64,000 bases of DNA from positions 186,001 through 250,000 of the forward strand of contig JAANOX010000061.1 in the NCBI GenBank assembly GCA_020184695.1, given 5' to 3'. This document shows, piece by piece, positions 4,906-26,169 of this stretch. The first letter of the stretch is position 1. Each line of letters opens with the position of its first letter. Origin of the DNA: Histomonas meleagridis 2922-C6/04-290x. Its lineage: Eukaryota; Protista; Parabasalia. The position numbers were made by a program, and so were the translations under genes. The notes below the pieces were generated by a model. That model searched no databases and was not told where the DNA came from. It saw only the letters and a list, made by a program, of their open reading frames with translations.

Positions 4906-4992
4906 ATGGATTTTTTATTTTTTTCACCTGAGCAACTTAGAGAGGGGAAAAGCGCACCATTGGATAGAGCTCCCGGAGAGGAGCAGAACCAT

Positions 4993-5436: not shown

Positions 5437-5660
5437 ACACACACACACACACACACAGCGCTATGTGAGCTTCGTGCTACGCACTCGCTCCCACTCGCGC
5501 TACATAAACTAAAGGATGAACGGTGTAAACGCGATTGATTTTCATAAATCGGTTGGTTTTGATTGAAAGTAATAAAATATATTTAAATTCATGATGACAT
5601 TTATATTTAAAATGTGTGAGGCATTAATCCGGCTGAGTTGTTGTTAATCCTATGTGGTAA
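5437..5660 (+). repeat. Left terminal inverted repeat, begins (AC)10-AGCGCTATGTGAGC
   Basis: Reverse complement of 25950-26169; the ~65 nt after the AC tract are identical, the remainder has scattered differences. Confidence 0.95.
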
Positions 5661-6067
5661 GTTGTGTTTGGAGCTTAAAATATTTCTAATGCTACTTAAC
5701 AACCTAACCTAACCTAACTTAACCTATCATTAAAAATTCGAGAAAGCCTTTTCGTAAAAGTCCATATATTTTAGAGGTTGAAGTCTAGCTTGATGACTTG
5801 ACGTGAATTTTACATGTTTACTGGAGCTGCTAACTATAAGTTCACGGAAGAATTGCTGTTATTTCTCTGTGGAAATGAGGGTTTTGATGTTAATCCTATG
5901 TAGATTTTAGTGTTTGGAGCTTAAAGTTTTATATGCTACTTAACAACCTAACCTAACTTAACTTAACCTATCATTAAAAATTCGAGAAAGCCTTTTCGTA
6001 AAATTCCATATATTTTTGAGGTTGAAGTCTAGCTTGATGACTTGACGTGAATTTTACATGTTTACTG
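5643..6067 (+). repeat. Subterminal direct duplication (period ~246 nt) containing CCTAA/CTTAA runs
   Basis: GTTAATCCTATGT...CATGTTTACTG block occurs at 5643-5823 and 5889-6067. Confidence 0.85.
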
Positions 6068-6135
6068 CTTCTGATGATGATTAATTGACGGGAAAGGCTT
6101 GTTTCTATGTTGAATGTTGTATTTAGTGCTGTTTC

Positions 6136-7352
6136 TTGCATTTCGAAAGCGTTATTAAACACAGTGAAGAAAAATTAAAACTATTCGACAAAGAAGCAAT
6201 TGAAACTTACGTTAATGAAAATTTTGATGATTCATATGATGTTTTAGATCATAAAATCGAAAAGAAATTGAAACAATACGACGCTATTATCGGAAAATAT
6301 GAATTAGATAAAGATGATTTAGAAGATATTGAAAATTTAAAGAATATGCAAAAGAACCTTCCCGAAATAATTGAAGATAGATTAATTAATAAATATTACC
6401 GGGAGAATCACATTTACAAAGAAATGGAACAAGAACTTCAAGAACAAATTGTCGTTTACGACCGCTTAGCTCACCAACAAAAATTCACGTTGGTTGAATG
6501 GAAAGAAAAATGTTTACAGAGAGAGCAAGAAGAAGAAAGGAAAAGATTGATTGAATATTTATCTATACCACATTCAAACAAAGATGTGATAAGAAATCTT
6601 AATGAATTTGTTCATGAATGCGTCAATAAGAATTATACGGAATTGTTGGATGAATACTATGACATGTATAAAAATGCTTTTGATGAAATTAGTCGGAATA
6701 AATATGAAAAAACTATACGAAATGTATTTGACACTAAGTCATCACAAAAAGTAATCAAAGCGTTTACCGAACACAATCAAACTTTAATTAATAGATTACA
6801 ATTTCTAATCGCAAAAATACAATTTAATGAAACAGAAGAGTATTTAACAATTGAACAATATTTAAAGAAATCATTTGAAAAATTCATTTCTGATCATTTT
6901 ATGACCATTTATAATTTTATGAAAAACTCCATCGGTTCAATAGCTAAAAGTTCAGTAACATTTGAAAATTCAACTGCAATAAAAGTTTATGCTCAATCAA
7001 TCGTAAGAGATATAAATCAAATTTTAATTAGAGACTTACCGGAAGTATTAGAAAGTAGATTTTCCGATTATATTCAAACGTTAATGGAGAAATTTAGGTA
7101 TTAATACAGAAGAGAAAACAAGAAAGTAAAAAAACAAAAGTTCAGAGTATTGAATTAAGTTTTGATTCATTTCTTAATTCAGTTCCTGACGGAGAATTAG
7201 AGATTGGTGAACTATGCGATATGTATAATAATTACTTTGGATCAAATTTAACAACAAGAAGCTTTTCATTATTGAAAGTTGTTAAAGAACATTTTAATAA
7301 AAGATCAACCGTTAGAAACAAAAAGAAAACCACATACTATGCAAAATGCTGA
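6136..7352 (+). CDS. Element-specific helical protein (322-aa ORF) plus a frameshifted or separate ~70-aa downstream segment
   Basis: ORF 6136-7104 lacks a clear ATG; a downstream frame reads KVQSIELSFDSFLNSVPDGELEIGELCDMYNNYFGSNLTTRSFSLLKVVKEHF...YYAKC*. No family recognised. Confidence 0.55.
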
Positions 7353-7362
7353 ATTTCATAAA

Positions 7363-7950
7363 GTTTTAAAATAATGATATATCATTAATTCCTTTGTCGA
7401 ATGTTGTAACAAACGCTGATAAATTGAACGAACGTAAACTTGTTTTAATAAATGTTTTATCATTAATCCTTTGTCGAATATAAGCAAGCAAACGCATAAA
7501 TCTACATCTGATGTTAATGTTTTTCATTGAATCCTTCGTCGAATGTTGCAATAGAGCTGAAAAATTGAACGAACGTAAACTTGCTTTAAAATAATGATAT
7601 ATCATTAATTCCTTTGTCGAATGTTGTAACAAATGCTGATAAATTGAACGAACGTAAACTTGTTTTAAAATAATGATATATCATAAATTCCTTTGTCGAT
7701 ATAAGCATAAACGCCTTAAATCAACATAGTCATTAATGTTTTTCATTGAATCCTTTGTCGAACTTTGCAAAAACACTGATAAATTGAACGAACGTAACTT
7801 GTTTCGTTCGTATTGAATCGTAAGTGATTTGCAAATTTTGAGCGTTTGATGCTTAAAAATTGTTGTTTTAAAATAATGATTATTCATAAACTCCTTTGTC
7901 GAACTTTGCAAAAACACTGATAAATTCAACGAACGTAAACTTGTTTTAGT
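7363..7950. repeat. Modular ~65-70-nt repeat array (TTCCTTTGTCGAA / AAATTGAACGAACGTAAAC); mirror at ~23390-23775
   Basis: Recurring blocks visible at least 6 times. Confidence 0.85.
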
Positions 7951-8260
7951 TCACGTGAGTCGTTAATGGTTGTGTCGATTTTAGATTTTTTTTTAAATAA
8001 TGAGGTAGCAAAGTAACCGGTAATTTTTATATTAACAGTATAGTGTCGGAGACCTCCGACATCCGACATGAATTTTGATTTGTGACTTGTTACTGTTACC
8101 AGCACATTTTACAGAATTCTGTTTATAAGAATAAATTAACAGAAGAAACAACAGACAAAAACAACTAGATGAAAGAATAACAGAAGAAACAAGAATATAA
8201 TACTTATAAATGTACTGTTAAATGAAGGTATCAAATGCTGTTAATTTTGTTACCGCTATT

Positions 8261-8510
8261 GTTACCATCACCTTTAACAGTAATTATAAGAAAACAATGA
8301 CTCATTCAAATCAAAAACAGCAAAGAAAACTCCGATTCACAAAATTGACTTTGAAAATTGTTACCATCACCTTTAACAGTAATTATAAGAAAACAATGAC
8401 TCATTCAAATCAAAAACAGCAAAGAAAACTCCGACTCACACATAATTGACTTTGAAAATTGTTACCATCACCTTTAACAGTAATTATAAGAAAACAATGA
8501 CTCATTATTT
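8261..8510. repeat. ~100-nt tandem repeat x2.5; mirror at ~22830-23075
   Basis: GTTACCATCACC starts at 8261, 8360 and 8461. Confidence 0.9.
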
Positions 8511-8559
8511 AGAATCATTAACTTTTATCATTAAATTCAAAAAATAATTACAATATAAT

Positions 8560-10812
8560 TTATCTCTTAACATCAAACTCTCCATTAAATTCTTCATTAA
8601 ATTCTTCGTCGATTTTCTTTCTATAAAATACACGTGTATTTCTTCCAAATATTTTATACTGCATTTTATAAATTTCTTTTTCCATCAGCTCTCTTTCAAA
8701 TGATTTCTTACTTAGTTTAAAACGATCGTATTTTGAGTACTGAACGTATAACCGGTTCATTTCTGATACTGTTATATATTCTATTTCTTCGTCATGATAT
8801 ATTGCATTCTTCCAACATTCTTGAATATCATCAAGGAAATCTTCAAGTGGCGATTCTTTAATGCCTCTAAGTTGATTTTGAACAATCGACGAGTCGTAAC
8901 GGTCAAATAAATTTCTTTTCACAAAATCATTTAGATCTAAAGACATTAAATAATTATATAAAGATAATGGAAAATTAATATCGTCAATAACATCTTTATC
9001 CTTAACAAATTCAGATTCAAAAATACTTCTTTCTTTAAATCTTATTATACAAAATCTTGACAGCAAGGCTTGATCTCCTGAATTCAACATACCGTATAAA
9101 TCCGCGTGATTTGTGTTTAATACGTCGATGGCAAAATCATTTTCTTGGCGTGTATCACGATTCATCGATCGCACCGTTTGTGAGTTATTAGTCAATCGTT
9201 TGATGATATTATTAGTTGTTTTATTTGAATAATTATCAGTTGAAAACTCATCATAAGAACGATAAAGCTTTTTGGCAAAACCACCGTTGTGCTTCTCACT
9301 TAGTTGTAGTTCATTTATTCCGACTAAGGCAAAATCTCGATAAAGTTTTTTGAATGAATTGTCGATATATGTTTTTCCAGAATTTCCGGTTGAAGAATAT
9401 TTAATAAAGAATACTGGAGCTTTTTTACGAAACTTTAAAGTAAAAGCTGCTATTTTAAGTAGATGATGAAAAGCTTTTATTGCTTCATCATCAAAAAGTT
9501 GATCTTCAATTAATTGAATCCATTTACTAATAAGATCAGGTTTATCTTCTATTGAGGTATAACTCATTGTGATTGAGGGAGCTCTAAAGAGAGAGAAAAT
9601 TTTGTCATCATCTCCAATAACTTCAAACCTCACAAAACTTTTGAATCTATCTCTATTCTTAACGTTTCGTAATTCTTTAAACAAAGATATAGTTTTTGTG
9701 TCTGAAATCTTTTTTTATGCCTTTTTTCGCATCAGTTCTTTTTCTTCGTTTGTTGTTGGCAGTGTGATGTCAAAATTGAAATAATTCTGAAGTGATTTTT
9801 GAATCTAAAATTTGAAAATCAATTTTTTTCCATCATTGAAAACTTTCATTATATAATCTCCCCAAATCAGTGAACGCCAAACATTTTTATAAGGTTATTT
9901 ATATAGTCGTCAACTGTTGAAAAAAACTAATCATTTCTTTCAAATAATCAGAAAAAAACAGTATTTAGAATTTAAAAAAACTCATCTATTTTTAGCATTA
10001 ACTGTTAAATCAGCTGATTCACAATTTTTCATAAACGCATCGTTTATTAAATCGCGATTGATTGTTTCACTTTCAAAAGAATTAAAACCGCAAATTACAG
10101 GAAGCAGAGAAATTTCTTGATCTACTGATTTATTGCAGTCGTTGTGGATTTCAAGATTTTTAAAACCATTAACTAAAGCATTAAATAATTTTAATTCATT
10201 CTCTGGATTTCTTTCTTCTGTTTCTTCTTCAAATAATTCTTCATTAAAATTTAATTCTTCATTAAAATTCAATTCTTCATTAAAAACAGTAACTTTTTCG
10301 TTTTGTTTCTCAATCAAACTTTCAAAATCAATTCCAATCTCATCAAAAAGTATATTTTTTAAATCATCAAAAGTCATTAATTCATCATTATTGCAATCGT
10401 TTATTAATATATACTCACCAATAACTCCATCGTGATTCTTTGCTTTACTTCCCGGTAATACTACTATCGATCGTTTCTCTCTATCTATCGGAACGAATAA
10501 ATCAACATCGAACAATTCACAACTGAAGCATTTAATAAATCTATTCTTATTTAAAGACATCGATTGATCCCAAAAACTATAAATATGAATTCCTCCTGAC
10601 GCAGTTTTTACAATTTTACACTTATTAAAAGCTTTAGAATTAAAAGATTTCAAAACTTCTTCTTGTTCACATTTAACGTCTATATCAACAATCGCGTACG
10701 GCGATAAATTAGCAAGTAAAGCTTCTCCGGTTCTTTTTCCGATCTTTACTCCATCGTGTTTTTCATAATTACGCAAAGTTATTTTATCACCAATGAATGT
10801 ATCGTTATTCAT
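8560..10812 (-). pseudogene. Damaged copy of the primase-helicase
   Basis: Mirror of 20420-22780; split into ORFs 9982-10950 and 8560-9684 by a ~140-nt deletion near 9990 and homopolymer indels. Confidence 0.9.
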
Positions 10813-10974
10813 ATTCTTTTTAATGCTGCTAAAAAAAGTAATTACAACATTAAAACTAAGCTTAATTACAAAACATATTTTTAATATTTTTACGACTAAT
10901 AAATGGAAACCATTAATGATATTAATAACACAGAAGATAACAAAAAACATAGATTAAAAAAACACATCTTGCAT

Positions 10975-11260
10975 TAACGTTATCATCAGCTTTATCATCA
11001 TCAGCTTTATCATTCAACGAAAGCATTAATTAAAGAACTCTCGACACATCATTTTTGTTCTTATCATTCAACGAAAAGCATTAATTAAAGAACTCTCGAC
11101 ATATACATAAACGTTATCATTCAACGAAAAGCATTAATTAAAGAACTCTCGACACATCATTTTTGTTCTTATCATTCAACGAAAAGCATTAATTAAAGAA
11201 CTCTCGACACATCATTTTTGTTCTTATCATTCAGCTTTATCATCAGCTTTACATCAACGC
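10975..11260. repeat. ~55-nt tandem repeats upstream of the primase unit; mirror at ~19795-20030
   Basis: TTATCATTCAACGAAAAGCATTAATTAAAGAACTCTCGACA x4. Confidence 0.9.
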
Positions 11261-11309
11261 CAAAGTCATTAATTTTAAATTATCATTTTATAATTTTATT
11301 TTTATATAA

Positions 11310-11684
11310 ATGGAGTTATTAATTCCAGAAGAATTTTTAAGATATAATATATCATTTTGTTTTGAAGATGAAGAATTCACTAACGCAAACACTATTATAG
11401 AAAATATATTTAGAATTTACGGCAAACAAAATTTTATAGAGTTTTACTTCGACTTTGACGAATCACAAACGTTTGACAATATAGTGTATCGCATTAGAAT
11501 AAAGAACATAAAATTTGGTGATTCAAGCATAACGTTTGAAATTCCCGTTTATATTTACGTTACTAACACAAAGCATAGAACGCTGACAAAGAACAATAAC
11601 AAAGTCGTTTATTTTACAAAAAACTATGAGACGTTCAGGAATGAAGATGGAGTCGTCATTAAATATTATTATTATTATTTTTAG
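11310..11684 (+). CDS. Element ORF124, unknown function (copy 1)
   Basis: Intact in both arms (partner 19360-19740); TATATAAATG start context. Confidence 0.7.
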   Translation: MELLIPEEFLRYNISFCFEDEEFTNANTIIENIFRIYGKQNFIEFYFDFDESQTFDNIVYRIRIKNIKFGDSSITFEIPVYIYVTNTKHRTLTKNNNKVVYFTKNYETFRNEDGVVIKYYYYYF

Positions 11685-11699
11685 TTGAAAAATCACTAA

Positions 11700-12075
11700 T
11701 TAAAAATCAATAATGAATACGTTGATTTTAGCATCAAACGTATAAAAATACTTCTTCCGTTCGTGTTATATCAATAATGATTATGTTGATTTAAAACAAG
11801 TGGATTTAAGTGCGAACGACTTAAAAATACTTCTTCCGTTTGTGTTATATAACTAATGATTACGTCGATTTAAAACATGTTGATTTAAGCGTGAACGACT
11901 TAAAAATACTTCTTATGTTTACTTATATGTTAATCCTATGTCGATTTTAGCATCAAATGCATAAAAATACTTCTTCTGTTTACTTATATGTTAATCCTAT
12001 GTCGATTTTAGCATCAAACGCTTAAAAAATACTTCTTCCGTTCGTGTTATATCAATAATGATTTCGTCGATTATA
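11700..12075. repeat. ~60-65-nt degenerate repeat array (AAAAATACTTCTT core); mirror at ~18960-19340
   Basis: Core motif recurs at least 6 times. Confidence 0.85.
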
Positions 12076-12517
12076 GAATTACTGTTAAAACATAAGGCGG
12101 TACGATTTGACCACCATCAATTTTTTAAAATTCTTTTGGTAACAAAGTAACGAGTCCCAGGTACCATTTATGTTTTTATATAAGTGTCGGACGACACCGC
12201 TCCCCGACATTAATTTTGATTTGTGACTTGGGACTGGGACCGATACATTTAACAGTATAATTAAGAAAAACATTGAACAAATCATAATAAATCGTTAATC
12301 CTTTGTCGAAACTAATAATTACCTCTTAAAAATACTTCTTCATTTACTGATGAATAACTAATGATACGTCGATTATAAAATTACTGTTAAAACATAAGAT
12401 GACAGGATCCTGTCGCCATGAATTTTTTAAATTTTATGACACTGTGCAATTTTGCACACCCTTGATTTTAAAGTTAATTTTTAAATCATTAATGTAAATT
12501 TTTTTACTGATTATAAA

Positions 12518-12817
12518 ATGAGTAAGTTAACAGTTGACCGCAAAAAAATAAAATACGAAAGAATCAAGTGATAGATTTTTATCGTTTGGTATGATACATT
12601 GAAAGATAGTTTAAAAAATATGAGCCGTTCAAAAATTCAAGAGCTTTATTTAAATGACTCTGGCGTCGCTGTCTCAAATAATTTTGTGGCACAAATATTT
12701 AAAAACGACTATTTGATAAAAGGGAACAAGGTTTATAGGTTATATGGCTTGATTAATGACGGCGTTAATGAAAACAAAGACGGAGAGAATGAAGAAGAAG
12801 ACAAAGAAATACATTAA
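12518..12817 (+). CDS. Small element ORF (~100 aa with one frameshift in an A7 run), acidic tail (copy 1)
   Basis: MSKLTVDRKK joins the IRKNQVIVFIVWYDTLKDSLKNMSRSKIQELY frame only if one base is added in the A-run; same in both arms. Confidence 0.55.
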
Positions 12818-12969
12818 CGAAAAGGATTATTTTGAAACGTGTCAAAACAAGAATTTTTTAGTGTGAATGACAAAAAAAAAAAAAAAAATAAAACGACAAA
12901 ATTAATTATAAAATATAAATTAAAAGTCATTCATGAGAAGAGAACGTAATTTATTTTTCTCTTCATTCT

Positions 12970-13508
12970 CTACAGCAACAAAAAAACTAACGCTTGAAAT
13001 AAAGCATCTGCCACGTCATCTTTCTTATCAAACGATTCGAAAGAACTTATACACTCATTTTTTTGTATTTTTTTCAAAAGAAATTACTTATCAATCGCAT
13101 ACTTAGTTTTTTTATGTTCTTTATTCTTTGTATTATAACTGATTTTTAATTTTGAAAATTTACTTTTTGGATCAAATAATATTATATCTTCAGGTTGAAC
13201 GTAATTTAGAGATATAGAAATAATGCTATACATTAAACAGCTCGCGATAATGTTTTGTTTTACTTGTCGTTCAATTATTATTTTATGAAAAGCATATTTT
13301 TCAGCAATAATTTCAAATATATTTTTTAATTGTAATGCTCTATCAATCGAAACTTGAAATTTTGACTTCGTTTTTGTTTAAATCAAACAATTTAATATCA
13401 ACGGATAGCTCGTTAAAGCCTTTGATGTAATCGGAAATGATTACAACAGCGAGATTTTTTTAATTCCAATATCAATTGAAACAATAACTTTTTTTGTTTT
13501 TTTTGCAT
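12970..13508 (-). CDS. Poxvirus A22/RuvC-like Holliday junction resolvase, frameshifted in homopolymer runs
   Basis: Manual translation across frames: VIVSIDIGIK(N)LAVV ... KIIIERQVKQN ... FDPKSKF ... KKDDVADALFQAL. These are the D, E and DD catalytic motifs of RuvC/A22 resolvases. Absent from the ORF track. Confidence 0.75.
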
Positions 13509-13869
13509 TTTTAATTAAATTAAAAAGTTATAAATGAAAAACATAAATAAGAACATAAATAAGAACTTTCAAACACAATCACTTAACGACAACGTAAATT
13601 TAAAACAAGTGATTTTTAAGCGTGAAATGACTTAAAAATTTGTTGTTCAGTAATTACAAAAAAACGATAATGAAGTACTCATTAACGACAACGTAAATTT
13701 AAAACAAGTATTTTTTTAAGCATAAATGACTTAAAATTTGATATTCAGTAATTATAAAACAATAATGATTTCATAAATACAATCACATTAACGGCAAACG
13801 TGAATTTGAAACAAGTATTTTTAAGTGTGAATGACTTAAAATTTGATATTCAGTAATTACAAAAACAAT

Positions 13870-15078
13870 AATGAAAATCATTTAACGACAAACGTAAATT
13901 TAAAACGTGTGGATTTGAGCGCTAGATGTTTAAATCTTGATGATTCATTCATCCGAAGTTATTGATTGTGTCGAAAAGTTCTTATTCTTGATGTTACATT
14001 TGTGATTGTGGAAAAAGTTAACCTCTTACAAACTCGAGTAAATCAGCGTTTTTCGGATGATTTGACGTGAATATTGCAAGTTTACTGCAGTTACTGAAAG
14101 GTTAACTTTTTTTGTTTTTTAACCTTGAATTTTTTATATATATTTTTTGATGAATGAAGTCTCATTAACGACTAAACGTGAATTTGAAACAAGTATTTTT
14201 CAGTAGAATGACAAGAAAATACAAGGACGTTTATGATATTATTAATTCTATGTTTGATTTTTTTTTTTTTTTTAATAATGACAAACTAACTAACTAACTA
14301 AAAAAGTTATTAGCTAAAGGAAATTTCAAATTGACGATTGAGTTTCTCCGTTCAGATGATTTGACGTGAATATTGAGTGTTTACGTGAGCTGCTGATGAT
14401 TCATTAACGACTAAACGTGAATTTAGAAACATGTATTTTTAAGTAAAATAACAAGAAAATACAAGGACGCGAATGATATATATTATTCCTATGTTTGTTT
14501 TTTCATAAAATAAATACTACCTGATAACTTGATATACCAGGTAGTTACCAGGTAATATTGCGATTAGCTAAAGGAAATTTCAAATTGACGATTGAGTTTC
14601 TCCGTTCAGATGATTTCACACGAATATTAAGTGTTTACGTGAGCTGTTAATAATCATTAACGTTAGAAATTGATTTAAAACAACAATTTTTTTAGCATAA
14701 ATGACTCATTTCCACATATCATTCAATGACTCATTAACGTGAATGTTGATTTTTACAAGTTTCTTGTTCTTCAATCTTCGGATAATAAATGATTGTGTCG
14801 AATGAATCTTATATTTTGTTCTTCGTTAATGATTGTGTCGAATGAATCTTATATTTTGTTCTTCGTTAATGATTGTATCAAATGAATCTTATATTTTGTT
14901 CTTCATTAATGATTGTGTCGAATGAATCTTATTTCTTGTTATTCATTAATGATTGTATCAAATGAATCTTATATTTTGTTATTCAATCTTCGGATAATAA
15001 ATGATTGTGTCGAATGAATCTTATTTCTTGATTCTCTGAAGATTTAAGTGTTTGATGTTGTCGTTGACGTTATAAAAT
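13870..15078. repeat. Left arm of inner ~1.2-kb inverted repeat (partner ~15677-16935), incl. 40-nt tandem array at ~14780-15030
   Basis: Direct reverse-complement match, e.g. 14521-14640 with 16120-16235. Confidence 0.92.
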
Positions 15079-15149
15079 ATTTTCTATTATGTTAATATAA
15101 TGATAAGTTCATTTTTAATATTATTTTTCATTTTTTTTATTTATATAAA

Positions 15150-15613
15150 ATGAGCTTTAAAAAGCATATTTCAGACGAAGAAGAAGAATATGAAGTTGTT
15201 GATTCAATTGAGCGAGAAGAAGAAATTATAACAGAAAATTTGATTCAAAAAAATCAAAACATTAAAACTAAACGAAAAAAATTAGAAATTTTTAAAAGAA
15301 AATAACTAATCCGGAATTTCATGACAAAAAGCAAATTTCAAAAGAAGACGACGAAGAAGAATATGAGCTTGAAACTTTAGCTGATCTTCCTTTCGATGCG
15401 ATTGAAGTCAGAGAATTTAAAAATTCAAAGTTTGAGAATTATTATTTTGATATTCGCGTTCATGGTTTTTATTTCTTTGATGGTATCCTTTATCATCGTT
15501 TGCGTGTGAATTATGACCGTTTGGGAAACGCTATTGTTTTCTTGCGTGATATTAATTACGGTTTGGTCATTGTGCGATTATCGGAATATTTTAAATTTGT
15601 GGGATTGCGCTGA
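15150..15613 (+). CDS. Acidic protein carrying the C-terminal domain of the element HNH proteins but no HNH motif (one frameshift)
   Basis: MSFKKHISDEEEEY...LADLPFDAIEVREFKNSKFENYYFDIRVHGFYFFDGILYHRLRVNYDRLGNAIVFLRDIN aligns by eye with FDEINEDSIEVREYNNYQFEDYYYDDETDAFYFWNGLQFRKLTICYNKRSYAFVNARDIN. Confidence 0.65.
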
Positions 15614-15676
15614 AACTTTTTATTTTTGTAATTTGTTCATCCGAACCGTTAGTTTTATTGTGAATAGAAGCATGAA

Positions 15677-16935
15677 TGTTTATAACGTCAACGACAACAT
15701 CAAACACTTAAATCTTCAGAGAATCAAGAAATAAGATTCATTCGACACAATCATTTATTATCCGAAGATTGAATAACAAAATATAAGATTCATTTGATAC
15801 AATCATTAATGAATAACAAGAAATAAGATTCATTCGACACAATCATTAATGAAGAACAAAATATAAGATTCATTTGATACAATCATTAACGAAGAACAAA
15901 ATATAAGATTCATTCGACACAATCATTAACGAAGAACAAAATATAAGATTCATTCGACACAATCATTTATTATCCGAAGATTGAAGAACAAGAAACTTGT
16001 AAAATCAACATTCACGTTAATGAGTCATTGAATGATATGTGGAAATGAGTCATTTATGCTCAAAAAAATTGTTTTTTTAAATCAATTTCTAACGTTAATG
16101 ATTATTAACAGCTCACGTAAACACTTAATATTCGTGTGAAATCATCTGAACGGAGAAACTCAATCGTCAATTTGAAATTTCCTTTAGCTAATCGCAATAT
16201 TACCTGGTAACTACCTGGTATATCAAGTTATCAGGTAGTATTTATTTTTATGAAAAAAACAAACATAGGATTAATATATATCATTCGCGTCCTTGTATTT
16301 TTTCTTGTCATTCTACTGAAAAAAATACATGTTTCTAAATTCACGTTTAGTCGTTAATGAATCATCAGCAGCTCACGTAAACACTCAATATTCACGTCAA
16401 ATCATCTGAACGGAGAAACTCAATCGTCAATTTGAAATTTCCTTTAGCTAATAACTTTTTTAGTTAGTTAGTTAGTTTGTCATTATTAAAATAATATGAA
16501 AAAAATCAAACATAGAATTAATAATATCATAAACGTCCTTGTATTTTCTTGTCATTCTACTGAAAAAAATACTTGTTTCAAATTCACGTTTAGTCGTTAA
16601 TGAGACTTCATCCATCAAAAAATATATATAAAAAATTCAAGGCTACCCAACAAAAAACGCTAACCTTTCAGTACCTGCAGTAACCTTGAAATATTCACGT
16701 CAAATCATCCGAAAAAAACGCTGATTTACTCGAGTTTGTAAGAGGTTAACTTTTTCGGGTTAAAAAAATATTTTTAAAAATTAAAAGATACTTTTTACAT
16801 CAAAACCTCAGTTAATAAGAACTTTTCGACACAATCACAAATGTAACATCAAGAATAAGAACTTTTCGACACAATCAATAACTTCGGATGAATGAATCAT
16901 CAAGATTTAAACATCTAGCGCTCAAATCCACATAT
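15677..16935. repeat. Right arm of inner inverted repeat
   Basis: Reverse complement of 13870-15078; runs into a 64-nt tandem repeat (16877, 16941, 17005). Confidence 0.9.
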
Positions 16936-17029
16936 CATCAAATAACTTCGGATGAATGAATCATCAAGATTTAAACATCTAGCGCTCAAATCCACATATC
17001 ATCAAATAACTTCGGATGAATGAATCATC

Positions 17030-17215
17030 AAAAAATATATATACAATTTTTGAAAATCACTCTTGGCAAGAATTTTATGATGAATTTTACAAAGAATATT
17101 ATGGTAGCCCGAAAAAGGGCGAGCAAGAGAAACAGCCAATTTATCAATTAAATAAAGGATTTTCTGTAAAGGAAAACTATTTAAGAGGAACATACGTAGA
17201 TCCGCGTTTAATAAA
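17030..17215 (+). pseudogene. KilA-N domain fragment
   Basis: IFENHSWQEFYDEFYKEYY...IYQLNKGF...RGTYVDPRLINY resembles the C-terminal half of KilA-N (GTYVHP-type motif); both ends truncated. Confidence 0.6.
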
Positions 17216-17594
17216 TTATACGAATGTTTTGTCGTTAATGATTCAGTAATTGAATATGTTTACATCTTATTATTATTGCGAAATCAATTTTTAAGTCATT
17301 TCGCGCTTAAATCCACACGTTTTAAATTTACGTTTGTCGTTAATGAAAAAACACGAACAGATAAAGTATTTTTAAGCGTTTGATGCGACATTCGACAAAG
17401 GAATTTATGATATATCATTATTTTGAAACAAGTTTACGTTCGTTCAATTTTTAAGCGGTTGATGTTTCATAAGGTACTGCATTTTTGCACGACCTCAACA
17501 ACTCCAGTAATTTAGCATTTTCCGAATGATTTTGAGATTTCAAAAATTAAGTTTAATTTTTAAAAAATTTAATTTTTTTATTTATATAAAAATA

Positions 17595-18149
17595 ATGAGC
17601 TGGATTGATTGTATTTGTGATTGTAATTATGAAATTTTTACAGAATTTCCTTTTCAGATTCGAAGAAAAAGTAATAAAAAAATTATAAAAGAATCAGTAA
17701 TGAATACAGGATATGTTCAATGTTACTTAAATAACAAATTATATCTCAAACACAGAATTATTGCAGAACAATTCATACCGAATCATGAAAATAAGCCATT
17801 TATTGATCATATAGATCATAATAAAACTAATAATAACATTAATAATCTCCGTTGGGTTTCTGCTTCAGAAAATTCAAAGAATAGAGCATCATATAGGAAA
17901 GATTTTGAGTATTTTGATGAAATCAATGAAGATTCAATTGAAGTTAGAGAGTATAATAATTATCAATTTGAGGATTATTACTATGACGACGAAACAGACG
18001 CGTTTTACTTTTGGAACGGTTTACAGTTCAGAAAATTAACAATCTGTTATAATAAGCGCAGTTATGCTTTCGTCAATGCACGCGACATAAATAATAAACA
18101 AGTCAGGATTTATTATGCAAAATTTAAGAAAATTTATGGCTTCGTTTAA
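17595..18149 (+). CDS. HNH endonuclease (HNH_3-like), 184 aa from the likely ATG
   Basis: FIDHIDHNKTNNNINNLRWVSASEN motif; intact ORF. Confidence 0.88.
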   Translation: MSWIDCICDCNYEIFTEFPFQIRRKSNKKIIKESVMNTGYVQCYLNNKLYLKHRIIAEQFIPNHENKPFIDHIDHNKTNNNINNLRWVSASENSKNRASYRKDFEYFDEINEDSIEVREYNNYQFEDYYYDDETDAFYFWNGLQFRKLTICYNKRSYAFVNARDINNKQVRIYYAKFKKIYGFV

Positions 18150-18234
18150 TTTACAAGTTATATTTTTCAATTAATTTTGTCATTCACACTAAAAAAATTC
18201 TTGTTTTTGACACGTTTCAAAATAATCCTTTTCG

Positions 18235-18533
18235 TTAATGTATTTCTTTGTCTTCTTCTTCATTCTCTCCGTCTTTGTTTTCATTAACGCCGTCATTAAT
18301 CAAGCCATATAACCTATAAACCTTGTTCCCTTTTATCAAATAGTCGTTTTTAAATATTTGTGCCACAAAATTATTTGAGACAGCGACGCCAGAGTCATTT
18401 AAATAAAGCTCTTGAATTTTTGAACGGCTCATATTTTTTAAACTATCTTTCAATGTATCATACCAAACGATAAAAACTATCACTTGATTCTTTCGTATTT
18501 TATTTTTTTGCGGTCAACTGTTAACTTACTCAT
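18235..18533 (-). CDS. Small element ORF (copy 2)
   Basis: Mirror of 12518-12817. Confidence 0.55.
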
Positions 18534-19359
18534 TTTATAATCAGTAAAAATTTACATTAATGATTTAAAATTAACTTTAAAATCAAGGGTGTGCAAAATT
18601 GCACAGTGTCATAAAATTTAAAAAATTCATGGCGACAGGATCCTGTCATCTTATGTTTTAACAGTAATTTTATAATCGACGTATCATTAGTTATTCATCA
18701 GTAAATGAAGAAGTATTTTTAAGAGGTAATTATTAGTTTCGACAAAGGATTAACGATTTATTATGATTTGTTCAATGTTTTTCTTAATTATACTGTTAAA
18801 TGTATCGGTCCGGGTCCCAAGTCACAAATCAAAATTAATGTCGGGAGTCGGAGCTCGCCGCCACTTATATAAAAACATAAATGGTACCTGGGACTCGTTA
18901 CTTTGTTACCAAAAGAATTTTAAAAAATTGATGGTGGTCGAATCATACCGCCTTATGTTTTAACAGTAATTTTATAATCGACGAAATCATTATTGATATA
19001 ACACGAACATAAGAAGTATTTTTATGCGTTTGATGCTAAAATCGACAGAGGATTAACATATTCACAGAATGAAAGAAGTATTTTTATGCATTTGATGCTA
19101 AAATCGACATAGGATTAACATATAAGTAAACATAAGAAGTATTTTTAAGTCGTTCACGCTTAAATCCACATGTTTTAAATCGACGTAATCATTAGTTATA
19201 TAACACAAACGGAAGAAGTATTTTTAAGTCGTTCGCACTTAAATCCACTTGTTTTAAATCAACATAATCATTAGTTATATAACACAAACGGAAGAAGTAT
19301 TTTTAAGCGTTTGATGCTAAAATCAACGTATTCATTATTGATTTTTAATTAGTGATTTC

Positions 19360-19740
19360 TCAATTAAAATAATAATAATAATAATATTTAATGACGACTC
19401 CATCTTCATTCCTGAACGTCTCATAGTTTTTTGTAAAATAAACGACTTTGTTATTATTCTTTGTCAGCGTTCTATGCTTTGTGTTAGTAACGTAAATATA
19501 AACGGGAATTTCAAACGTTATGCTTGAATCACCAAATTTTATGTTCTTTATTCTAATTCTATATACTATATTGTCAAACGTTTGCGCTTCGTCAAAGTCA
19601 AAGTAAAACTCTATAAAATTTTGTTTGCCGTAAATTCTAAATATATTTTCTATAATAGTGTTTGCGTTAGTGAATTCTTCATCTTCAAAACAAAATGATA
19701 TATTATATCTTAAAAATTCTTCTGGAATTAATAACTCCAT
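19360..19740 (-). CDS. Element ORF124 (copy 2, 126 aa)
   Basis: Mirror of 11310-11684. Confidence 0.7.
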   Translation of the reverse strand: MELLIPEEFLRYNISFCFEDEEFTNANTIIENIFRIYGKQNFIEFYFDFDEAQTFDNIVYRIRIKNIKFGDSSITFEIPVYIYVTNTKHRTLTKNNNKVVYFTKNYETFRNEDGVVIKYYYYYYFN

Positions 19741-20107
19741 TTATATAAAAATAAAATTATAAAATGATAATTTAAAATTAATGACTTTGGCGTTGATGTA
19801 AAGCTGATGATAAAGCTGAATGATAAGAACAAAAATGATGTGTCGAGAGTTCTTTAATTAATGCTTTTCGTTGAATGATAAGAACAAAAATGATGTGTCG
19901 AGAGTTCTTTAATTAATGCTTTTCGTTGAATGATAACGTTTATGTATATGTCGAAACTTCTTTAATTAATGCTTTCGTTGAATGATAAAGCTGATGATGA
20001 TAAAGCTGATGATAACGTTAATGCAAGATGTGTTTTTGAGCGTTGACAAAAATAATATTTAACACACAATATAAGTTTGACCTCCATAAATAACTGTTGG
20101 TATGTTA

Positions 20108-20329
20108 TCAGGTTTTTATTAAATAAGCTATATGACGAGATATTTTAATTCCAGTTTCTTTTTCAAAAGCTTCTCTTAAAAAATTCAATTGTGAACGTTT
20201 TGGAATTGTTTTTAAAATTTCTTTTATATCATCTCGCATTAGAAAATCAATATACAATCTTTTTTGATTTTTTGTTAATCTATGTTTTTTGTTATCTTCT
20301 GTGTTATTAATATCATTAATGGTTTCCAT
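20108..20329 (-). CDS. 73-aa basic protein, divergent from and abutting the primase gene; possible DNA binder
   Basis: TAAATG start, Lys/Arg-rich helical sequence; mostly deleted in the left arm. Confidence 0.5.
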   Translation of the reverse strand: METINDINNTEDNKKHRLTKNQKRLYIDFLMRDDIKEILKTIPKRSQLNFLREAFEKETGIKISRHIAYLIKT

Positions 20330-20419
20330 TTATTAGTCGTAAAAATATTAAAAATATGTTTTGTAATTAAGCTTAGTTTTAATGTTGTAATTACTTTTTT
20401 TAGCAGCATTAAAAAGAAT

Positions 20420-22780
20420 ATGAATAACGATACATTCATAGGTGACAAAATCACTTTACGCAATTATGAAAAGCATGATGGAGTAAAGATCGGAAAAAGA
20501 ACCGGAGAAGCTTTACTTGCTAATTTATCGCCGTACGCGATTGTTGATATAGACGTTAAATGTGAACAAGAAGAAGTTTTGAAATCTTTTAATTCTAAAG
20601 CTTTTAATAAGTGTAAAATTGTAAAAACTGCGTCAGGAGGAATTCATATTTATAGTTTTTGGGATCAATCGATGTCTTTAAATAAGAATAGATTTATTAA
20701 ATGCTTCAGTTGTGAATTGTTCGATGTTGATTTATTCGTTCCGATAGATAGAGAGAAACGATCGATAGTAGTATTACCGGGAAGTAAAGCAAAGAATCAC
20801 GATGGAGTTATTGGTGAGTATATATTAATAAACGATTGCAATAATGATGAATTAATGACTTTTGATGATTTAAAAAATATACTTTTTGATGAGATTGGAA
20901 TTGATTTTGAAAGTTTGATTGAGAAACAAAACGAAAAAGTTACTGTTTTTAATGAAGAATTGAATTTTAATGAAGAATTATTTGAAGAAGAAACAGAAGA
21001 AAGAAATCCAGAGAATGAATTAAAATTATTTAATGCTTTAGTTAATGGTTTTAAAAATCTTGAAATCCACAACGACTGCAATAAATCAGTAGATCAAGAA
21101 ATTTCTCTGCTTCCTGTAATTTGCGGTTTTAATTCTTTTGAAAGTGAAACAATCAATCGCGATTTAATAAACGATGCGTTTATGAAAATTTATGAAACAG
21201 CTGATTTAACAGTTAATGCTAAAAATAAATTCTTTGAACAAATAACAAGAAATAGAAGTAAGAGATTTAAACATCATGGCGTGTTATTAAAGATATTAAA
21301 AATTCATAATAATGATTATTATAATAAATTTATATTGCCGTTAATTAAAAAAAATAATGTTTCTAAAGATGAGTTTTTAAATTCTAAATACTGTTTTTCT
21401 GATTATTTGAAAGAAATGATTAGTTTTTCAACAGTTGATGACTATATAAATAACCTTATAAAATGTTTGGCGTTCACTGATTGGGGAGATTATATTATTA
21501 AAGTTTTCAATGATGGAAAAATTGATTTTCAAATTTTAGATTCAAAATCACTTCAGAATTATTTCAATTTTGACATCACACTGCCAACAACAAACGAAGA
21601 AAAAGAACTGATGCGTAAAAGGCATAAAAAGATTTCAGACACAAAAACTATATCTTTGTTTAAAGAATTACGAAACGTTAAGAATAGAGATAGATTCAAA
21701 AGTTTTGTGAGGTTTGAAGTTATTGGAGATGATGATAAAATTTTCTCTCTCTTTAGAGCTCCCTCAAACACAATGAGTTATACCTCAATAGAAGATAAAC
21801 CTGATCTTATTAGTAAATGGATTCAATTAATTGAAGATCAACTTTTTGATGATGAAGCAATAAAAGCTTTTCATCATCTACTTAAAATAGCAGCTTTTAC
21901 TTTAAAGTTTCGTAAAAAAGCTCCAGTATTCTTTATTAAATATTCTTCAACCGGAAATTCTGGAAAAACATATATCGACAATTCATTCAAAAAACTTTAT
22001 CGAGATTTTGCCTTAGTCGGAATAAATGAACTACAACTAAGTGAGAAGCACAACGGTGGTTTTGCTAAAAAGCTTTATCGTTCTTATGATGAGTTTTCAA
22101 CTGATAATTATTCAAATAAAACAACAAATAATATCATCAAACGATTGACTAATAACTCACAAACGGTGCGATCGATGAATCGTGATACACGCCAAGAAAA
22201 TGATTTTGCCATCGACGTATTAAACACAAATCACGCGGATTTATACGGTATGTTGAATTCAGGAGATCAAGCCTTGCTGTCAAGATTTTGTATAATTAGA
22301 TTTAAAGAAAGAAGCATTTTTGAATCAGAATTTGTTAAGGATAAAGATGTTATTGACAACATTAATTTTCCATTATCTTTATATAATTATTTAATGTCTT
22401 TAGATCTAAATGATTTTGTGAAAAGAAATTTATTTGACCGATATGATTCATCAATTGTTCAAAATCAATTGAGAGCCATTAAAGAATCTCCGCTTGAAGA
22501 TTTCCTTGATGATATTCAAGAATGTTGGAAGAATGCAATATATCATGACGAAGAAATAGAATATATAACAGTATCAGAAATGAACCGGTTATACGTTCAG
22601 TACTCAAAATACGATCGTTTTAAACTAAGTAAGAAATCATTTGAAAGAGAGCTGATGGAAAAAGAAATTTATAAAATGCAGTATAAAATATTTGGAAGAA
22701 ATACACGTGTATTTTATAGAAAGAAAATCGACGAAGAATTTAATGAAGAATTTAATGGAGAGTTTGATGTTAAGAGATAA
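20420..22780 (+). CDS. Prim-Pol (AEP) primase fused to SF3/D5-like helicase
   Basis: AEP motifs IVDIDV, KTASGGIHIY and VVLPGS; Walker A STGNSGKT, Walker B SYDE, motif C NTNH, arginine finger ALLSRF. Likely start MNNDT at 20420 (track ORF opens at 20282). Confidence 0.88.
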   Translation: MNNDTFIGDKITLRNYEKHDGVKIGKRTGEALLANLSPYAIVDIDVKCEQEEVLKSFNSKAFNKCKIVKTASGGIHIYSFWDQSMSLNKNRFIKCFSCELFDVDLFVPIDREKRSIVVLPGSKAKNHDGVIGEYILINDCNNDELMTFDDLKNILFDEIGIDFESLIEKQNEKVTVFNEELNFNEELFEEETEERNPENELKLFNALVNGFKNLEIHNDCNKSVDQEISLLPVICGFNSFESETINRDLINDAFMKIYETADLTVNAKNKFFEQITRNRSKRFKHHGVLLKILKIHNNDYYNKFILPLIKKNNVSKDEFLNSKYCFSDYLKEMISFSTVDDYINNLIKCLAFTDWGDYIIKVFNDGKIDFQILDSKSLQNYFNFDITLPTTNEEKELMRKRHKKISDTKTISLFKELRNVKNRDRFKSFVRFEVIGDDDKIFSLFRAPSNTMSYTSIEDKPDLISKWIQLIEDQLFDDEAIKAFHHLLKIAAFTLKFRKKAPVFFIKYSSTGNSGKTYIDNSFKKLYRDFALVGINELQLSEKHNGGFAKKLYRSYDEFSTDNYSNKTTNNIIKRLTNNSQTVRSMNRDTRQENDFAIDVLNTNHADLYGMLNSGDQALLSRFCIIRFKERSIFESEFVKDKDVIDNINFPLSLYNYLMSLDLNDFVKRNLFDRYDSSIVQNQLRAIKESPLEDFLDDIQECWKNAIYHDEEIEYITVSEMNRLYVQYSKYDRFKLSKKSFERELMEKEIYKMQYKIFGRNTRVFYRKKIDEEFNEEFNGEFDVKR

Positions 22781-25182
22781 ATTATATTGTAATTATTTTT
22801 TGAATTTAATGATAAAAGTTAATGATTCTAAATAATGAGTCATTGTTTTCTATAATTACTGTTAAAGGTGATGGTAACAATTTTCAAAGTCAATTATGTG
22901 TGAATCGGAGTTTTCTTTGCTGTTTTTGATTTGAATGAGTCATTGTTTTCTTATAATTACTGTTAAAGGTGATGGTAACAATTTTCAAAGTCGATTATGT
23001 GTGAATCGGAGTTTTCTTTGCTGTTTTTGATTTGAATGAGTCATTGTTTTCTTATAATTACTGTTAAAGGTGATGGTAACAATAGCGGTAACAAAATTAA
23101 CAGCATTTGATACCTTCATTTAACAGTACATTTATAAGTATTATATTCTTGTTTCTTCTGTTATTCTTTCATCTAGTTGTTTTTGTCTGTTGTTTCTTCT
23201 GTTAATTTATTCTTATAAACAGAATTCTGTAAAATGTGCTGGTAACAGTAACAAGTCACAAATCAAAATTCATGTCGGATGTCGGAAGGCTCCGACACTA
23301 TACTGTTAATATAAAAATTACCGGTTACTTTGCTACCTCATTATTTAAAAAAAAATCTAAAATCGACACAACCATTAACGACTCACATTATTTTAAAACG
23401 AGTTTACGTTCGTTCAATTTTTCAGCGTTTATCGCAACATTCGACAGAGGAATTTATGTATATCATTATTTTCAAACAACAATTTTTAAGCATCAAACGC
23501 TCAAAATCCACAAATCACTTACGATTCAGATGAACGAAACAAGTTTACGTTCGTTCAATTTTTCAGCGTTTATTACAACATTCGACAGAGGATTAATGAT
23601 ATATCATTATTTTAAAACAAGTTTACGTTTGTTCAATTTATCATCGTTTGTTACAACATTCACAAAGGAATTTATGATATATCATTATTTTAAAACAAGT
23701 TTACGTTCGTTCAATTTATCAGCGTTTGTTACAACATTCGACAAAGGAATTAATGATATATCATTATTTTAAAACATGAATTTATCAGCGTTGATTGCTA
23801 AAATCGACAAATCACTCACACACACGAATGAAACATCAATTTTTAAGTGTTAATTACAAAAATCTAAAAATAAATTTATGATGTCATCAATTTTAAAACA
23901 TGAAATTATAAGCATTGAATAGTACATAATTTTGCGATTCGTTTGATATGTAAATCATGTAAAAATAACTATCATATAACGAGATAAATTTATTTTAAAA
24001 TTTCAATGTCAGTTTTTCACTTTTTCAATGAACGCCTTACGTTCGATTCCCGTACAGTGCGTTTTTTGTTAATGTCTTACGTTCGATTCCCAAACCTATT
24101 GAATTTTATTTTTAAACTTTTTACTCGTTCTACCTTAACGTTCAACTCTAACGTTCTTCCTTAACGTTCGACTCTAACGTTCTTCCTTAACGTTCACTTT
24201 ATCCTTCGTCATAAACACCGTCATAAAATTCGTCATCGAATATTTTTTACATTTGCCACTAAATTCAATGTGGATTCAAAAAATTTTACGTTTGACACTA
24301 ATTGAAAACATCATTCAAATTTACATTTTCAGTACTCATTCAAATCTCATTACTGCCCGCCAATTTCTAATCCTTAACGTTCAATTACCACCAAAATTTT
24401 TTTCATTGTAAAATAATTCAATACTTTACTTTTTACAACATTGAAAAAAAAATGCTCCTGTGTCGAGAAACGCGTGTCAGATTTTTTTTTAAGATTTCAA
24501 TACTTTTAAAAACTTTTTCAGAACTCATTCAAATTCATTTCCCGCCAATATTTTTCAGTACCTATTCAATTATTAATCGTTTTGCCACCAAATTAAATGA
24601 CAATTCAAAAAATTTTACATTTGCCACTAAATTAAATGATAATTCAAAATATTTTTTTACAACAACTTCAACCGTCATTTTCTCCGTCCGTTAATTTCCG
24701 TTAAATTTTAAACAGAAAACGTTTAAAAAAAATTTTTTGAAATCCGTTAAAAAAAGTTTATTTTTTACAACTTACTTTTTCAGCGGTTGTTCAAATTTAT
24801 CAACCGTCATTTTCTCCGTCAGTTAATTTTTCGTAAACGTATCACTAACGAACGTTAATTTTTCATCAACTGACATGTGATATGAAATGAAAAAACATGT
24901 TATGCGAAATGAATTTTTCGGAAATGTTATGTGAAAATGAAAAACAGAAATGTTATGTGAAATGTTTATATAAAAGTGACACAGACATGTGATATGAAAA
25001 TTTACACAAAAAGTGACACCAAAAGTGACACAAAATTTTTGAGGGTTAAAAAAATAAAAAAGTGAACCCTTTTTTTGAACCCTCAACGAAACGAAGTAAA
25101 TTAACATTTTTCGGATGATTTTACAAAATTAAAAATTAAAGCTAATTTTAAAAAAATTTAATTTTTTATTTTTAATAAAATA

Positions 25183-25746
25183 ATGAGTTGGAAAACTTGC
25201 GTTGTAAACCGAAATTATGAGATTAACACAGAATACCCTTATGCCATTAGAAGAAAAAATGATAAAAAAATCATTAAAGAATTTTCAATAAAAACTACCG
25301 GTTATATTGCATGTAAATTAAACAGAAAATTATATCTTAAACATCGTATTGTTGCATTACAATTTATTCCAAATCCTGATGACAAACCTTTTTATAGATC
25401 ATATAGATCACAATCGTTCAAACAATAACGTTTCAAATCTCCGTTGGGTTTATCAGTCAGAAAATCTAAAAAAATAAAAAGTTCAGGTAAAGGAAAAGAC
25501 TTTGAATTCTTTGACGAAATCAACGAGGATTCAATTGAAGTTAATAAGTATGGCAATCATCAATTAGAAGATTATTATTATGATGATAAAACAGATGCGT
25601 TTTACTTTTGGAACGGTATTAAATTCAGAAAATTAACAATCTGTTATGATAAGCGCGGTTCTGCTCATGTTTATTGCAGAGATACTAATAATTCAAGTTT
25701 TGCACTTTATTATTCAAAATTCAAAAAACTTTACGGTTTCGTTTAA
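25183..25746 (+). CDS. HNH endonuclease paralogue, two frameshifts
   Basis: LKHRIVALQFIPNPDDKP / DHIDHNRSNNNVSNLRWV across frames; C-terminal half matches 17595-18149. Confidence 0.8.
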
Positions 25747-25949
25747 AAATAATTTATTTTTTTGTCATTCAACTTTTGCGTTAAATCCTTCAAAAAATGC
25801 TCATTTTCTCCGTTTCGTAAAGGGTTAAAAAAAAAGGTTAAAAAATCACCTTTGAAAATTAAAAGGTACTTTTTACATTCAAAACCTCAGTTAATAACAA
25901 CTTTAAGCTCCAAACACTAAAATCTACATAGGATTAACAACAAAACACT

Positions 25950-26169
25950 AAAATCCACATAGTATTAACAACAACTCAGCCGGATTCATGCATCACACAT
26001 TTTAAATATAAATGTCATCATGAATTTAAATATATTTTATTACTTTCAACCAAAACCAACCGATTTATGATAATTCAATCGATTTTAGCCGTTCATCCTT
26101 TAGTTTATGTAGCGCGAGTGGGAGCGAGTGCGTAGCACGAAGCTCACATAGCGCTGTGTGTGTGTGTGT
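25950..26169 (-). repeat. Right terminal inverted repeat ending AGCGCT-(GT)7
   Basis: Reverse complement of 5437-5660. Confidence 0.95.

Follow-up and report, generated by a model that had tools for sequence, protein, structure and literature searches.

Architecture of the element

The host, identified by S18 at 99% as Histomonas meleagridis, is a protist parasite of poultry. Within the window (the whole 64,000-nucleotide stretch of its DNA that was analysed), positions 5437-26169 hold a 20.7-kb element made up of three nested pairs of inverted repeats with genes within and between them. Its features are listed below; the arms are given without strand.

5437-5657, plus strand: left terminal inverted repeat, (AC)n at its tip (self-BLAST and global alignment)
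5638-6114, plus strand: two subterminal direct repeats of 237 bp (86%), with a short motif common to the inner arms
6127-7352, plus strand: 5'-truncated member of a gene family of 455-490 aa, with long helices and a predicted C-terminal winged helix
7363-12905: left large arm, with 78/79-bp and 99-bp repeat blocks, a primase-helicase copy, 124-aa and 80-aa ORFs, and 55/61/79-bp repeat blocks
8560-10812, minus strand: left copy of the primase-helicase, interrupted in the assembly by homopolymer slips and by a 140-bp gap
11310-11684, plus strand: 124-aa ORF with two close metagenomic relatives
12973-13527, minus strand: probable Holliday junction resolvase of RuvC/A22-like type, split over four frames in the assembly (motifs by eye and a weak Pox_A22 match)
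13908-15076: left inner arm, non-coding, with internal repeats of 240 bp and 40 bp
15150-15613, plus strand: centre gene, with an acidic N-terminus, a region resembling the HNH proteins in their C-terminal half, and one frameshift
15679-16932: right inner arm, in which 16698-16825 resembles the right subterminal region (77%)
17010-17249, plus strand: fragment of KilA-N (below the Pfam cut-off), fused to a 64-bp tandem repeat
17595-18149, plus strand: intact HNH endonuclease gene (Pfam HNH_3, E 1.9e-13)
18146-23776: right large arm, carrying an intact primase-helicase and ORFs of 92, 126 and 73 aa
20420-22780, plus strand: intact 786-aa predicted primase-polymerase (pRN1 ORF904 type), SF3 helicase (NrS-1 like) and predicted winged helix
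25183-25746, plus strand: second HNH gene, frameshifted in the assembly, with short imperfect inverted repeats on either side
25894-26169, minus strand: right subterminal piece and terminal inverted repeat, (TG)n at its end

Self-BLAST and global alignment bear out the three nested inverted-repeat levels of the preliminary description. The terminal repeats (5443-5657 and 25955-26169, about 0.22 kb each) are 95-96% identical, the large arms (7582-12905 and 18146-23776, about 5.5 kb; the left one starts at 7363 when its repeat arrays are included) are 98.0% identical when ungapped, with 104 substitutions and 45 gaps, and the inner arms (13908-15076 and 15679-16932, about 1.2 kb) are 98.5% identical. 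In the global alignment, 140 bp and 237 bp of the right large arm are missing from the left one. The symmetry is far above that of shuffled sequence: exact inverted words of 504 and 326 nt were observed, as against a longest word of 16-22 nt in all ten shuffles. The levels had been called concentric; they are indeed nested but do not have a common axis, as their centres fall at 15806 for the terminal repeats, 15679/15526 for the large arms and 15420/15378 for the inner arms. Likewise, the centre between the inner arms has the size reported (602 bp, given as 0.6 kb) but is not gene-free, since it carries the gene listed above, which is related to the HNH proteins over their C-terminal half.

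With its length of 20.7 kb and terminal repeats of about 220 bp, the element lies within the Polinton range (13-25 kb and 100-1500 bp, respectively). No target-site duplication, for which the Polinton/Maverick criterion is 5-8 bp, adjoins its ends, in agreement with the preliminary description. The microsatellites at the two tips, (AC)n at 5437-5457 and (TG)n at 26155-26169, are reverse complements of each other and therefore belong to the terminal repeats, so that insertion into a host microsatellite was rejected. Polintons are reported to have short tandem repeats at their tips, a point to which we attach little weight. The left flank of the element (4906-5436) is itself a repeat.

The primase-helicase and the other genes

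The 786-aa protein of the right arm displays the AEP catalytic motifs, Walker A and B, motif C and a matching fold, its best fold matches being pRN1 ORF904, ASFV PrimPol, poxvirus D5 and NrS-1 (the last with E 1.9e-29). The motifs of both the primase and the helicase are intact and for the most part invariant among the 11 aligned sequences, and D43, D45, H76, D104, G515, K516, E558 and N604 are the same in all 11. Judged by motifs and fold matches, the protein combines a primase-polymerase of pRN1 type with an SF3 helicase. It has domain order and fold matches in common with pRN1 ORF904 and NrS-1; however, these are replicases of an archaeal plasmid and a phage, whereas the activity of the 786-aa protein is predicted. 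Coding differences between the arms are clustered and comprise 25 synonymous and 4 non-synonymous changes, a pattern pointing to purifying selection on the primase-polymerase-helicase in the pool that supplied both arms. The homopolymer slips of the left copy (9710-9952) are missing from short-read contigs, which match the right arm there.

Relatives of these genes were scarce in the collections searched. IMG/VR gave none for the primase alignment, the 455-aa alignment, P0007, HNH, the resolvase piece or the polymerase of the related contig L002 (see below), and PLSDB gave no match. The JGI contigs held no related locus with P0001 as query, and one with the primase alignment; this locus (L001) needs a ciliate-type code, has a stand-alone primase domain and yielded no informative surroundings. 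Among phages, 549 records matched the helicase half of P0007 only.

ORF322 (6127-7104) of the preliminary description forms, together with the following 84-aa frame, a single 5'-truncated gene of the 455-aa family, with one frameshift near 7093 that is absent from part of the short-read contigs. At the loose end of contigs at 6138, other copies continue in frame into the N-terminus that is missing here. Fold searches of PDB and BFVD with the family gave nothing at E<=0.001, only weak winged-helix rows appearing, and a profile comparison of its C-terminus with that of the primase was not significant. The reported KilA-N gene comes down to a fragment that matches profile positions 28-84 of 107 at E 5.9e-4, below the Pfam cut-off. 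Both this fragment and the 455-aa-family gene are cut off at repeat junctions. The resolvase assignment keeps its motifs by eye, with a weak profile match (Pox_A22, E 0.17, in the last of the four pieces only) and none in PHROGs, NCBIfam or PDB; short-read contigs differ from the window by indels in this region. The second HNH gene has 75% DNA identity to the first, and the centre gene matches the C-terminal half of the HNH proteins at 37-38% and is devoid of the HNH motif.

A Pfam search of 88 of the 121 six-frame segments of at least 42 aa (the other 33 lie wholly inside the left arm and are duplicated by the right arm) found no integrase, transposase, pPolB, ATPase or capsid family, which over this range confirms the absence of integrase, transposase, pPolB and capsid claimed earlier. 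The only frames above 220 aa are the primase copies and a 325-aa frame. No capsid-sized frame is left without another explanation, the 455-aa family being predicted all-helical, and neither the pPolB nor the ATPase of L002 has a match in the window. Having no pPolB, retroviral-like integrase or target-site duplication, this copy falls outside the Maverick definition, as had been stated.

Short-read contigs and depth

The comparison with short-read contigs covered the part of the element to the left of its centre. Right-arm alleles were carried at 15 of the 19 listed contig variant sites, and both exits of the outer end of the arm occur in the contigs, while two left-arm alleles (10022 and 10025) were not seen and no listed contig spans the whole examined stretch. 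The preliminary description would have fallen had the palindrome been a fold-back or chimera; this did not come true, as the contigs show real arm alleles. The contigs also show the modules in other arrangements, with joints leading directly from subterminal DNA into inner-arm or arm DNA (5901 to 14518, 14396 to 5884, 5915 to 11928 and 7445 to 11706).

Depth was taken from four runs, representing at most two samples of one study and possibly the source of the window itself. It was about 9-12 times the flank for the arms and 3.6-6.0 times the flank for the resolvase segment, with an arm-to-resolvase ratio of 1.9-2.6 in all four runs; the left terminal repeat was very deep in all four, the ends lying far above the arms. 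Taken as a hint and not as a copy number, these values suggest some 5-6 copies of the resolvase segment, twice as many arms and far more ends. Depth above the flank, cut genes and alternative joints together make it likely that the element belongs to a multi-copy family whose gene content has been deleted or truncated.

Relationship to Polintons and proposed origin

The 9.4-kb contig L002 encodes a relative of the primase (37% over the N-terminal 314 aa) next to a pPolB-type gene (PF03175, above the cut-off), an A32-like ATPase (E 0.002) and DUF4108 (E 5.7e-6). The likeness is distant and confined to the N-terminal 40%, and the remaining genes of the window have no match in L002; for the 73-aa ORF, a proposed kinship with an L002 ORF was rejected. 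G001 showed no A22 and no 455-aa-family match, and its other pPolB contig resembles a bacterial phage.

DUF4108, primase, D5, HNH and KilA-N are all on the gene list of TvMav3, the class-3 Mavericks of Trichomonas vaginalis (PMC12289875). These resemble the element in their parabasalid host, length of about 20 kb, short terminal repeats and primase/D5, HNH and KilA-N genes, the likeness being drawn from gene lists. They differ in having pPolB in 74% and integrase in 83% of copies, as well as ATPase and capsid (PMC12289875), all of which this copy lacks, and they are not described as palindromic, whereas the element has the primase-polymerase-helicase fusion twice and a probable resolvase. Certain Polinton-like viruses also have a primase-polymerase-SF3 helicase replacing pPolB, or an accessory resolvase, and terminal inverted repeats; in contrast to the element, Polinton-like viruses possess the capsid and packaging ATPase that define them and often a tyrosine recombinase (PMC11071308; PMC12721341). 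Histomonas itself harbours Polintons, with 61 and 72 capsid matches in two assemblies and 25-38 copies per capsid cluster (PMC10120064). As the arm depth of 9-12 times the flank is below this number, the primase module may be peculiar to the subfamily of the element and missing from most resident Polintons. The Polinton link is one of gene family and host content, not of common termini.

We consider it somewhat more probable than the opposite that the element descends from a resident Polinton/Maverick as a non-autonomous, multi-copy palindrome that arose through recombination and likely depends on a helper for its movement. At the 40-240-bp blocks bounding the cassettes, recombination or template switching would have deleted the core genes and brought two variants of the primase module together in head-to-head orientation, with a smaller inverted-repeat family member caught in the middle; the whole palindromic unit would then have been copied a few times. 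The ends and integration would likely be served in trans by the pPolB and integrase of the helper. The primase-polymerase-helicase would likely aid copying by re-priming and strand displacement, and the predicted resolvase would cut junctions arising from the long inverted repeats. Against such a derivative, an insertion made by an integrase is expected to leave a target-site duplication, and purifying selection (25:4) is unlike a dead derivative.

The preliminary description spoke of a head-to-head dimer of a primase-helicase replicon, or a new class of self-synthesising element. Taken as a head-to-head dimer of a primase-helicase module, the former fits the anatomy well. The latter is weakened by the pPolB neighbour in L002, the TvMav3 gene list and the resident Polintons, and by two genes that repeat junctions cut short, as deletion derivatives would show. 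Polinton-like viruses are already known to include AEP-SF3 helicase fusions and Holliday junction resolvases.

Transposons make up 0.2% of Histomonas by RepeatMasker versus 20% duplicated sequence (PMC8529796); the mobile fraction is essentially unannotated, and the element exposes one such family. A gene-bearing palindrome with a selected primase-helicase, from which pPolB and integrase are gone, offers a testable case of replication-module swapping in Polintons.

Alternative explanations

It is less probable, and on balance doubtful, that the unit is the inner 16.4-kb palindrome, acting as a self-replicating linear replicon of plasmid or transpoviron type that sits in, or captured, the ends of a commoner element. 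The primase-polymerase-helicase would copy the DNA, HNH nicks would start recombination and the resolvase would resolve palindromic intermediates. The intact motifs with their pRN1 ORF904, ASFV PrimPol, D5 and NrS-1 matches, the clustered 25:4 differences (as after recombination between working alleles), the roughly 2:1 arm-to-resolvase depth expected of a repeated palindromic unit and the lack of a target-site duplication are consistent with it, and terminal palindromes accompany non-pPolB replication genes in some Polinton-like viruses and virophages. However, a 602-bp gene-bearing spacer occupies the centre in place of a perfect palindrome that could be resolved, the outer ends amount to ordinary terminal repeats, the match of the resolvase is weak, two genes are truncated and no relative was found in IMG/VR or PLSDB. 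Moreover, the same primase family adjoins pPolB in L002, and the primase need therefore not be the replicase. Transpovirons are likewise small, linear, capsid-free and helper-virus dependent, with a helicase and few genes, but they are 6-8-gene mimivirus plasmids with an SF1 helicase in which long internal palindromes are not described (PMC3671162). We give a similarly low chance to a eukaryotic element devoid of pPolB, integrase and capsid in which primase-polymerase-helicase, homing-type HNH nickases and resolvase would copy a recombination-spread palindrome inside borrowed Polinton ends. If self-copying, it would be a primase-driven, integrase-free mobile replicon within a eukaryotic nucleus.

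That related elements inserted independently into each other, nested and inverted, as a one-off patchwork never copied whole is improbable. The different axes of the three levels, arms differing by alleles under selection as separate copies would, the repeat in the left flank and the missing target-site duplication fit such a history, and Trichomonas Mavericks are reported nested or concatenated; yet the inner junctions bear no evident duplication footprint or terminal-repeat tip, and the unique resolvase segment is several times deeper than the flank, at half the arm depth, in all four runs.

That the structure arose in assembly, from fold-back reads or from a wrong join within a repeat family, is very improbable: poor polishing with the slips at 9710-9952, the unseen left-arm alleles and the want of a spanning contig would suit it, but fold-back cannot produce different genes at matching slots on three levels, the arms differ by 104 substitutions and the 140/237-bp indels, and the contigs agree with the right arm at 15 of 19 sites and show both outer-end exits. 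A simple fold-back was rejected on the asymmetric cassettes and real alleles, and neutral in-place duplication on the 25:4 synonymous excess and clustered changes.

Anatomy of the element

The 20.7-kb mirror-image stretch at 5437..26169 (the element) is real DNA and is undescribed in the literature searched. Self-BLAST and alignments confirmed the three inverted-repeat pairs that the preliminary description had read as a concentric three-level palindrome, but the three levels have different axes.

5443-5657 / 25955-26169, terminal inverted repeats, 95-96% identity, tips (AC)n and (TG)n
7582-12905 / 18146-23776, large arms (the arms), 98.0% ungapped identity, 104 substitutions; in the assembly, stretches of 140 bp and 237 bp of the right arm are missing from the left
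13908-15076 / 15679-16932, inner arms, 98.5% identity, 16 of 17 substitutions within 14000-14500
between the inner arms, centre, 602 bp
6127..7352, 455-aa gene
12973..13527, probable resolvase (the resolvase)

The longest exact inverted word is 504 nt, against 16-22 nt in shuffled sequence. Non-coding DNA makes up about half of the element and consists of 40-240-bp repeat blocks bounding each cassette. Going outwards from the centre, there are two slots per half, and their cargo differs between the halves: the first holds the resolvase in one half and a KilA fragment plus HNH in the other, the second the 455-aa gene in one half and a spacer plus HNH in the other. As the preliminary description had stated, no target-site duplication is present at the ends of the element; this missing footprint may be due to the left flank (4906-5436) being itself a repeat. 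With regard to that side, 4824-5436 contains a tRNA gene left unassigned by ARAGORN (read by eye, probably Tyr with a short intron). Directly after it comes a repeat of higher GC content, which has a tandem unit of 126 bp and is high in contig depth. Together they may form a SINE-like or tRNA-associated element abutted by the left end.

Gene content

In the 88 of 121 six-frame segments scanned (the other 33 lie wholly within the left arm and duplicate the right), the only Pfam matches were HNH, KilA-N, DUF5906 and a weak DUF7411. An intact protein of 786 aa is encoded in the right arm. By alignment profile it matches the NrS-1 primase-helicase (E 1.9e-29), and its predicted structure (mean pLDDT 64.6, helicase part poor) resembles pRN1 ORF904, ASFV PrimPol and poxvirus D5. 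The catalytic residues are invariant in 11/11 aligned sequences of this large family, whose members lie mostly on short contigs.

ORF322 of the preliminary description is not a gene by itself: together with the next frame it makes up a single gene, which belongs to a 455-490-aa family (16 relatives). The family is predicted to have long helices and a winged-helix end; its fold search gave no significant match. About 50 codons at the start of the element's 455-aa gene are replaced by subterminal repeat, and in other copies (contigs, read by hand) the gene runs on in frame into this missing start. The HNH genes held up, one intact and the second frameshifted, while the KilA-N match is present but only as a fragment. 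The centre gene resembles the C-terminal half of the HNH proteins. The second HNH gene (25065-25839) has short imperfect inverted repeats (70-80%) on both sides, like a mobile cassette of its own. The resolvase lies in four frames, of which only the last piece gave a Pox_A22 match, a weak one (E 0.17); its motifs, read by eye, we take to be RuvC-type.

Relationship to Polintons

The element is not an autonomous Polinton; the Polinton definition used is that of 10.1101/2023.08.22.554363, and the transpoviron description that of PMC3671162. A scan of genome contigs returned one locus, L002 (9.4 kb, 1-9384), which is a stray contig of a gut MAG. The primase of L002 shares 37% identity over 314 aa with that of the element and is accompanied by a pPolB-type gene (above the PF03175 cut-off), an A32-like ATPase and DUF4108. 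This Maverick-like contig was binned with a bacterium (MAG, sheep colon), where it is likely a contaminant derived from an element of a gut protist. Another contig, L001 (1-14915), is AT-rich and has tandem repeats close to its two ends; its reading frames are open only with TAA/TAG=Q. It carries a kinase-like ORF and a primase domain that stands alone, and may represent a ciliate virus or element.

According to published work, class-3 Trichomonas Mavericks carry primase, DUF4108, D5, HNH and KilA-N genes and occur in nested or concatenated forms (PMC12289875), two Histomonas assemblies have 61 and 72 Polinton capsid hits (PMC10120064), and KilA is restricted to parabasalid polintons (10.1101/2024.03.23.586382). 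Likewise, Polinton-like viruses include AEP-SF3 fusions and resolvases (PMC11071308, PMC12721341), and in some of them terminal palindromes accompany non-pPolB replication genes (10.64898/2026.07.28.741278). The accessible parts of PMC8529796, PMC13735942 and PMC10045372 do not mention the element, and the literature searched, with subscription journals and Repbase thinly covered, described neither this element nor any palindromic Polinton with a primase.

We favour, with moderate confidence, a helper-dependent Polinton derivative that lost its core genes, doubled its primase module and was copied as a unit. Recombination at the repeat blocks would have removed the core genes and doubled the module head to head, and the palindromic unit would then have been copied a few times whole. 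However, the link rests on gene families and host content rather than shared helper ends, there is no insertion footprint, the primase relationship to L002 is distant, and the primase module is seemingly rarer than capsid genes and still under selection. Because of these points a self-replicating primase replicon stays in play, at rather low probability.

Copy number and other arrangements

Contig depth, which does not equal copy number, gave hints at the latter: 9-12x flank for the arms (longer contigs among those listed, four runs) and 3.6-6.0x for the resolvase segment, the arm:resolvase ratio being 1.9-2.6 in 4/4 runs. Five contigs were excluded from this set: four next to the 99-bp tandem repeat or the 3' end of the primase gene, and one that was diverged and of low depth. 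For the inner arms, two values were taken from the variant table. The bin with the terminal repeat had a summed contig depth several hundred times flank. Contig joints and loose ends indicate other module arrangements elsewhere, among them subterminal DNA fused to inner-arm or arm sequence and a 4.3-kb deletion form. A one-off nested patchwork at this locus appears improbable.

Arm alleles

Contigs of four runs (at most two samples from one study, possibly the window's own source) were compared over 3500-15100. Nineteen of the 40 variants listed (there are 117 more) fall in the arms, and 15 of these 19 alternative letters are the right-arm allele. Contigs with loose ends at the 237-bp gap, or at the outer end of the arm, also agree there with the right-hand sequence. 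The left primase has five homopolymer slips that do not appear in the contigs, which there agree with the right arm; the slips are thus likely assembly errors. Arm differences were 21:3 synonymous:non-synonymous in the primase (indel-rich 9715-10251 excluded) and 4:1 in the 124-aa ORF. The coding differences are clustered, with long identical tracts between, which points to recombination among working alleles. Neutral in-place duplication would not produce such a clustered synonymous excess. Nor would a fold-back read, named in the preliminary description as a refuting case, which would also not yield contig-supported right-arm alleles; an assembly artefact is very unlikely.

Remainder of the window

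The window, a piece of AT-rich eukaryotic DNA, contains genes for leishmanolysin, SNARE, Dopey, ankyrin and kinase proteins. Its S18 protein shares 99% identity with one assigned to Histomonas meleagridis, which identifies this parabasalid as the host. A DDE_3 (Tc1-type) transposase fragment lies at 38378-38869 (E 7e-12). At 55934-58986 there is a 3-kb element whose terminal inverted repeats measure 243 bp (96%); its 122-aa ORF resembles, on visual inspection, the N-terminus of mariner and has no Pfam match. Arrays with a 170-bp period lie 3' of DUF3447/ankyrin genes at 32142-33340, 48050-49640 and 51600-52510. This period would fit units made of a single ankyrin repeat and a short intron, an odd arrangement for an intron-poor genome.
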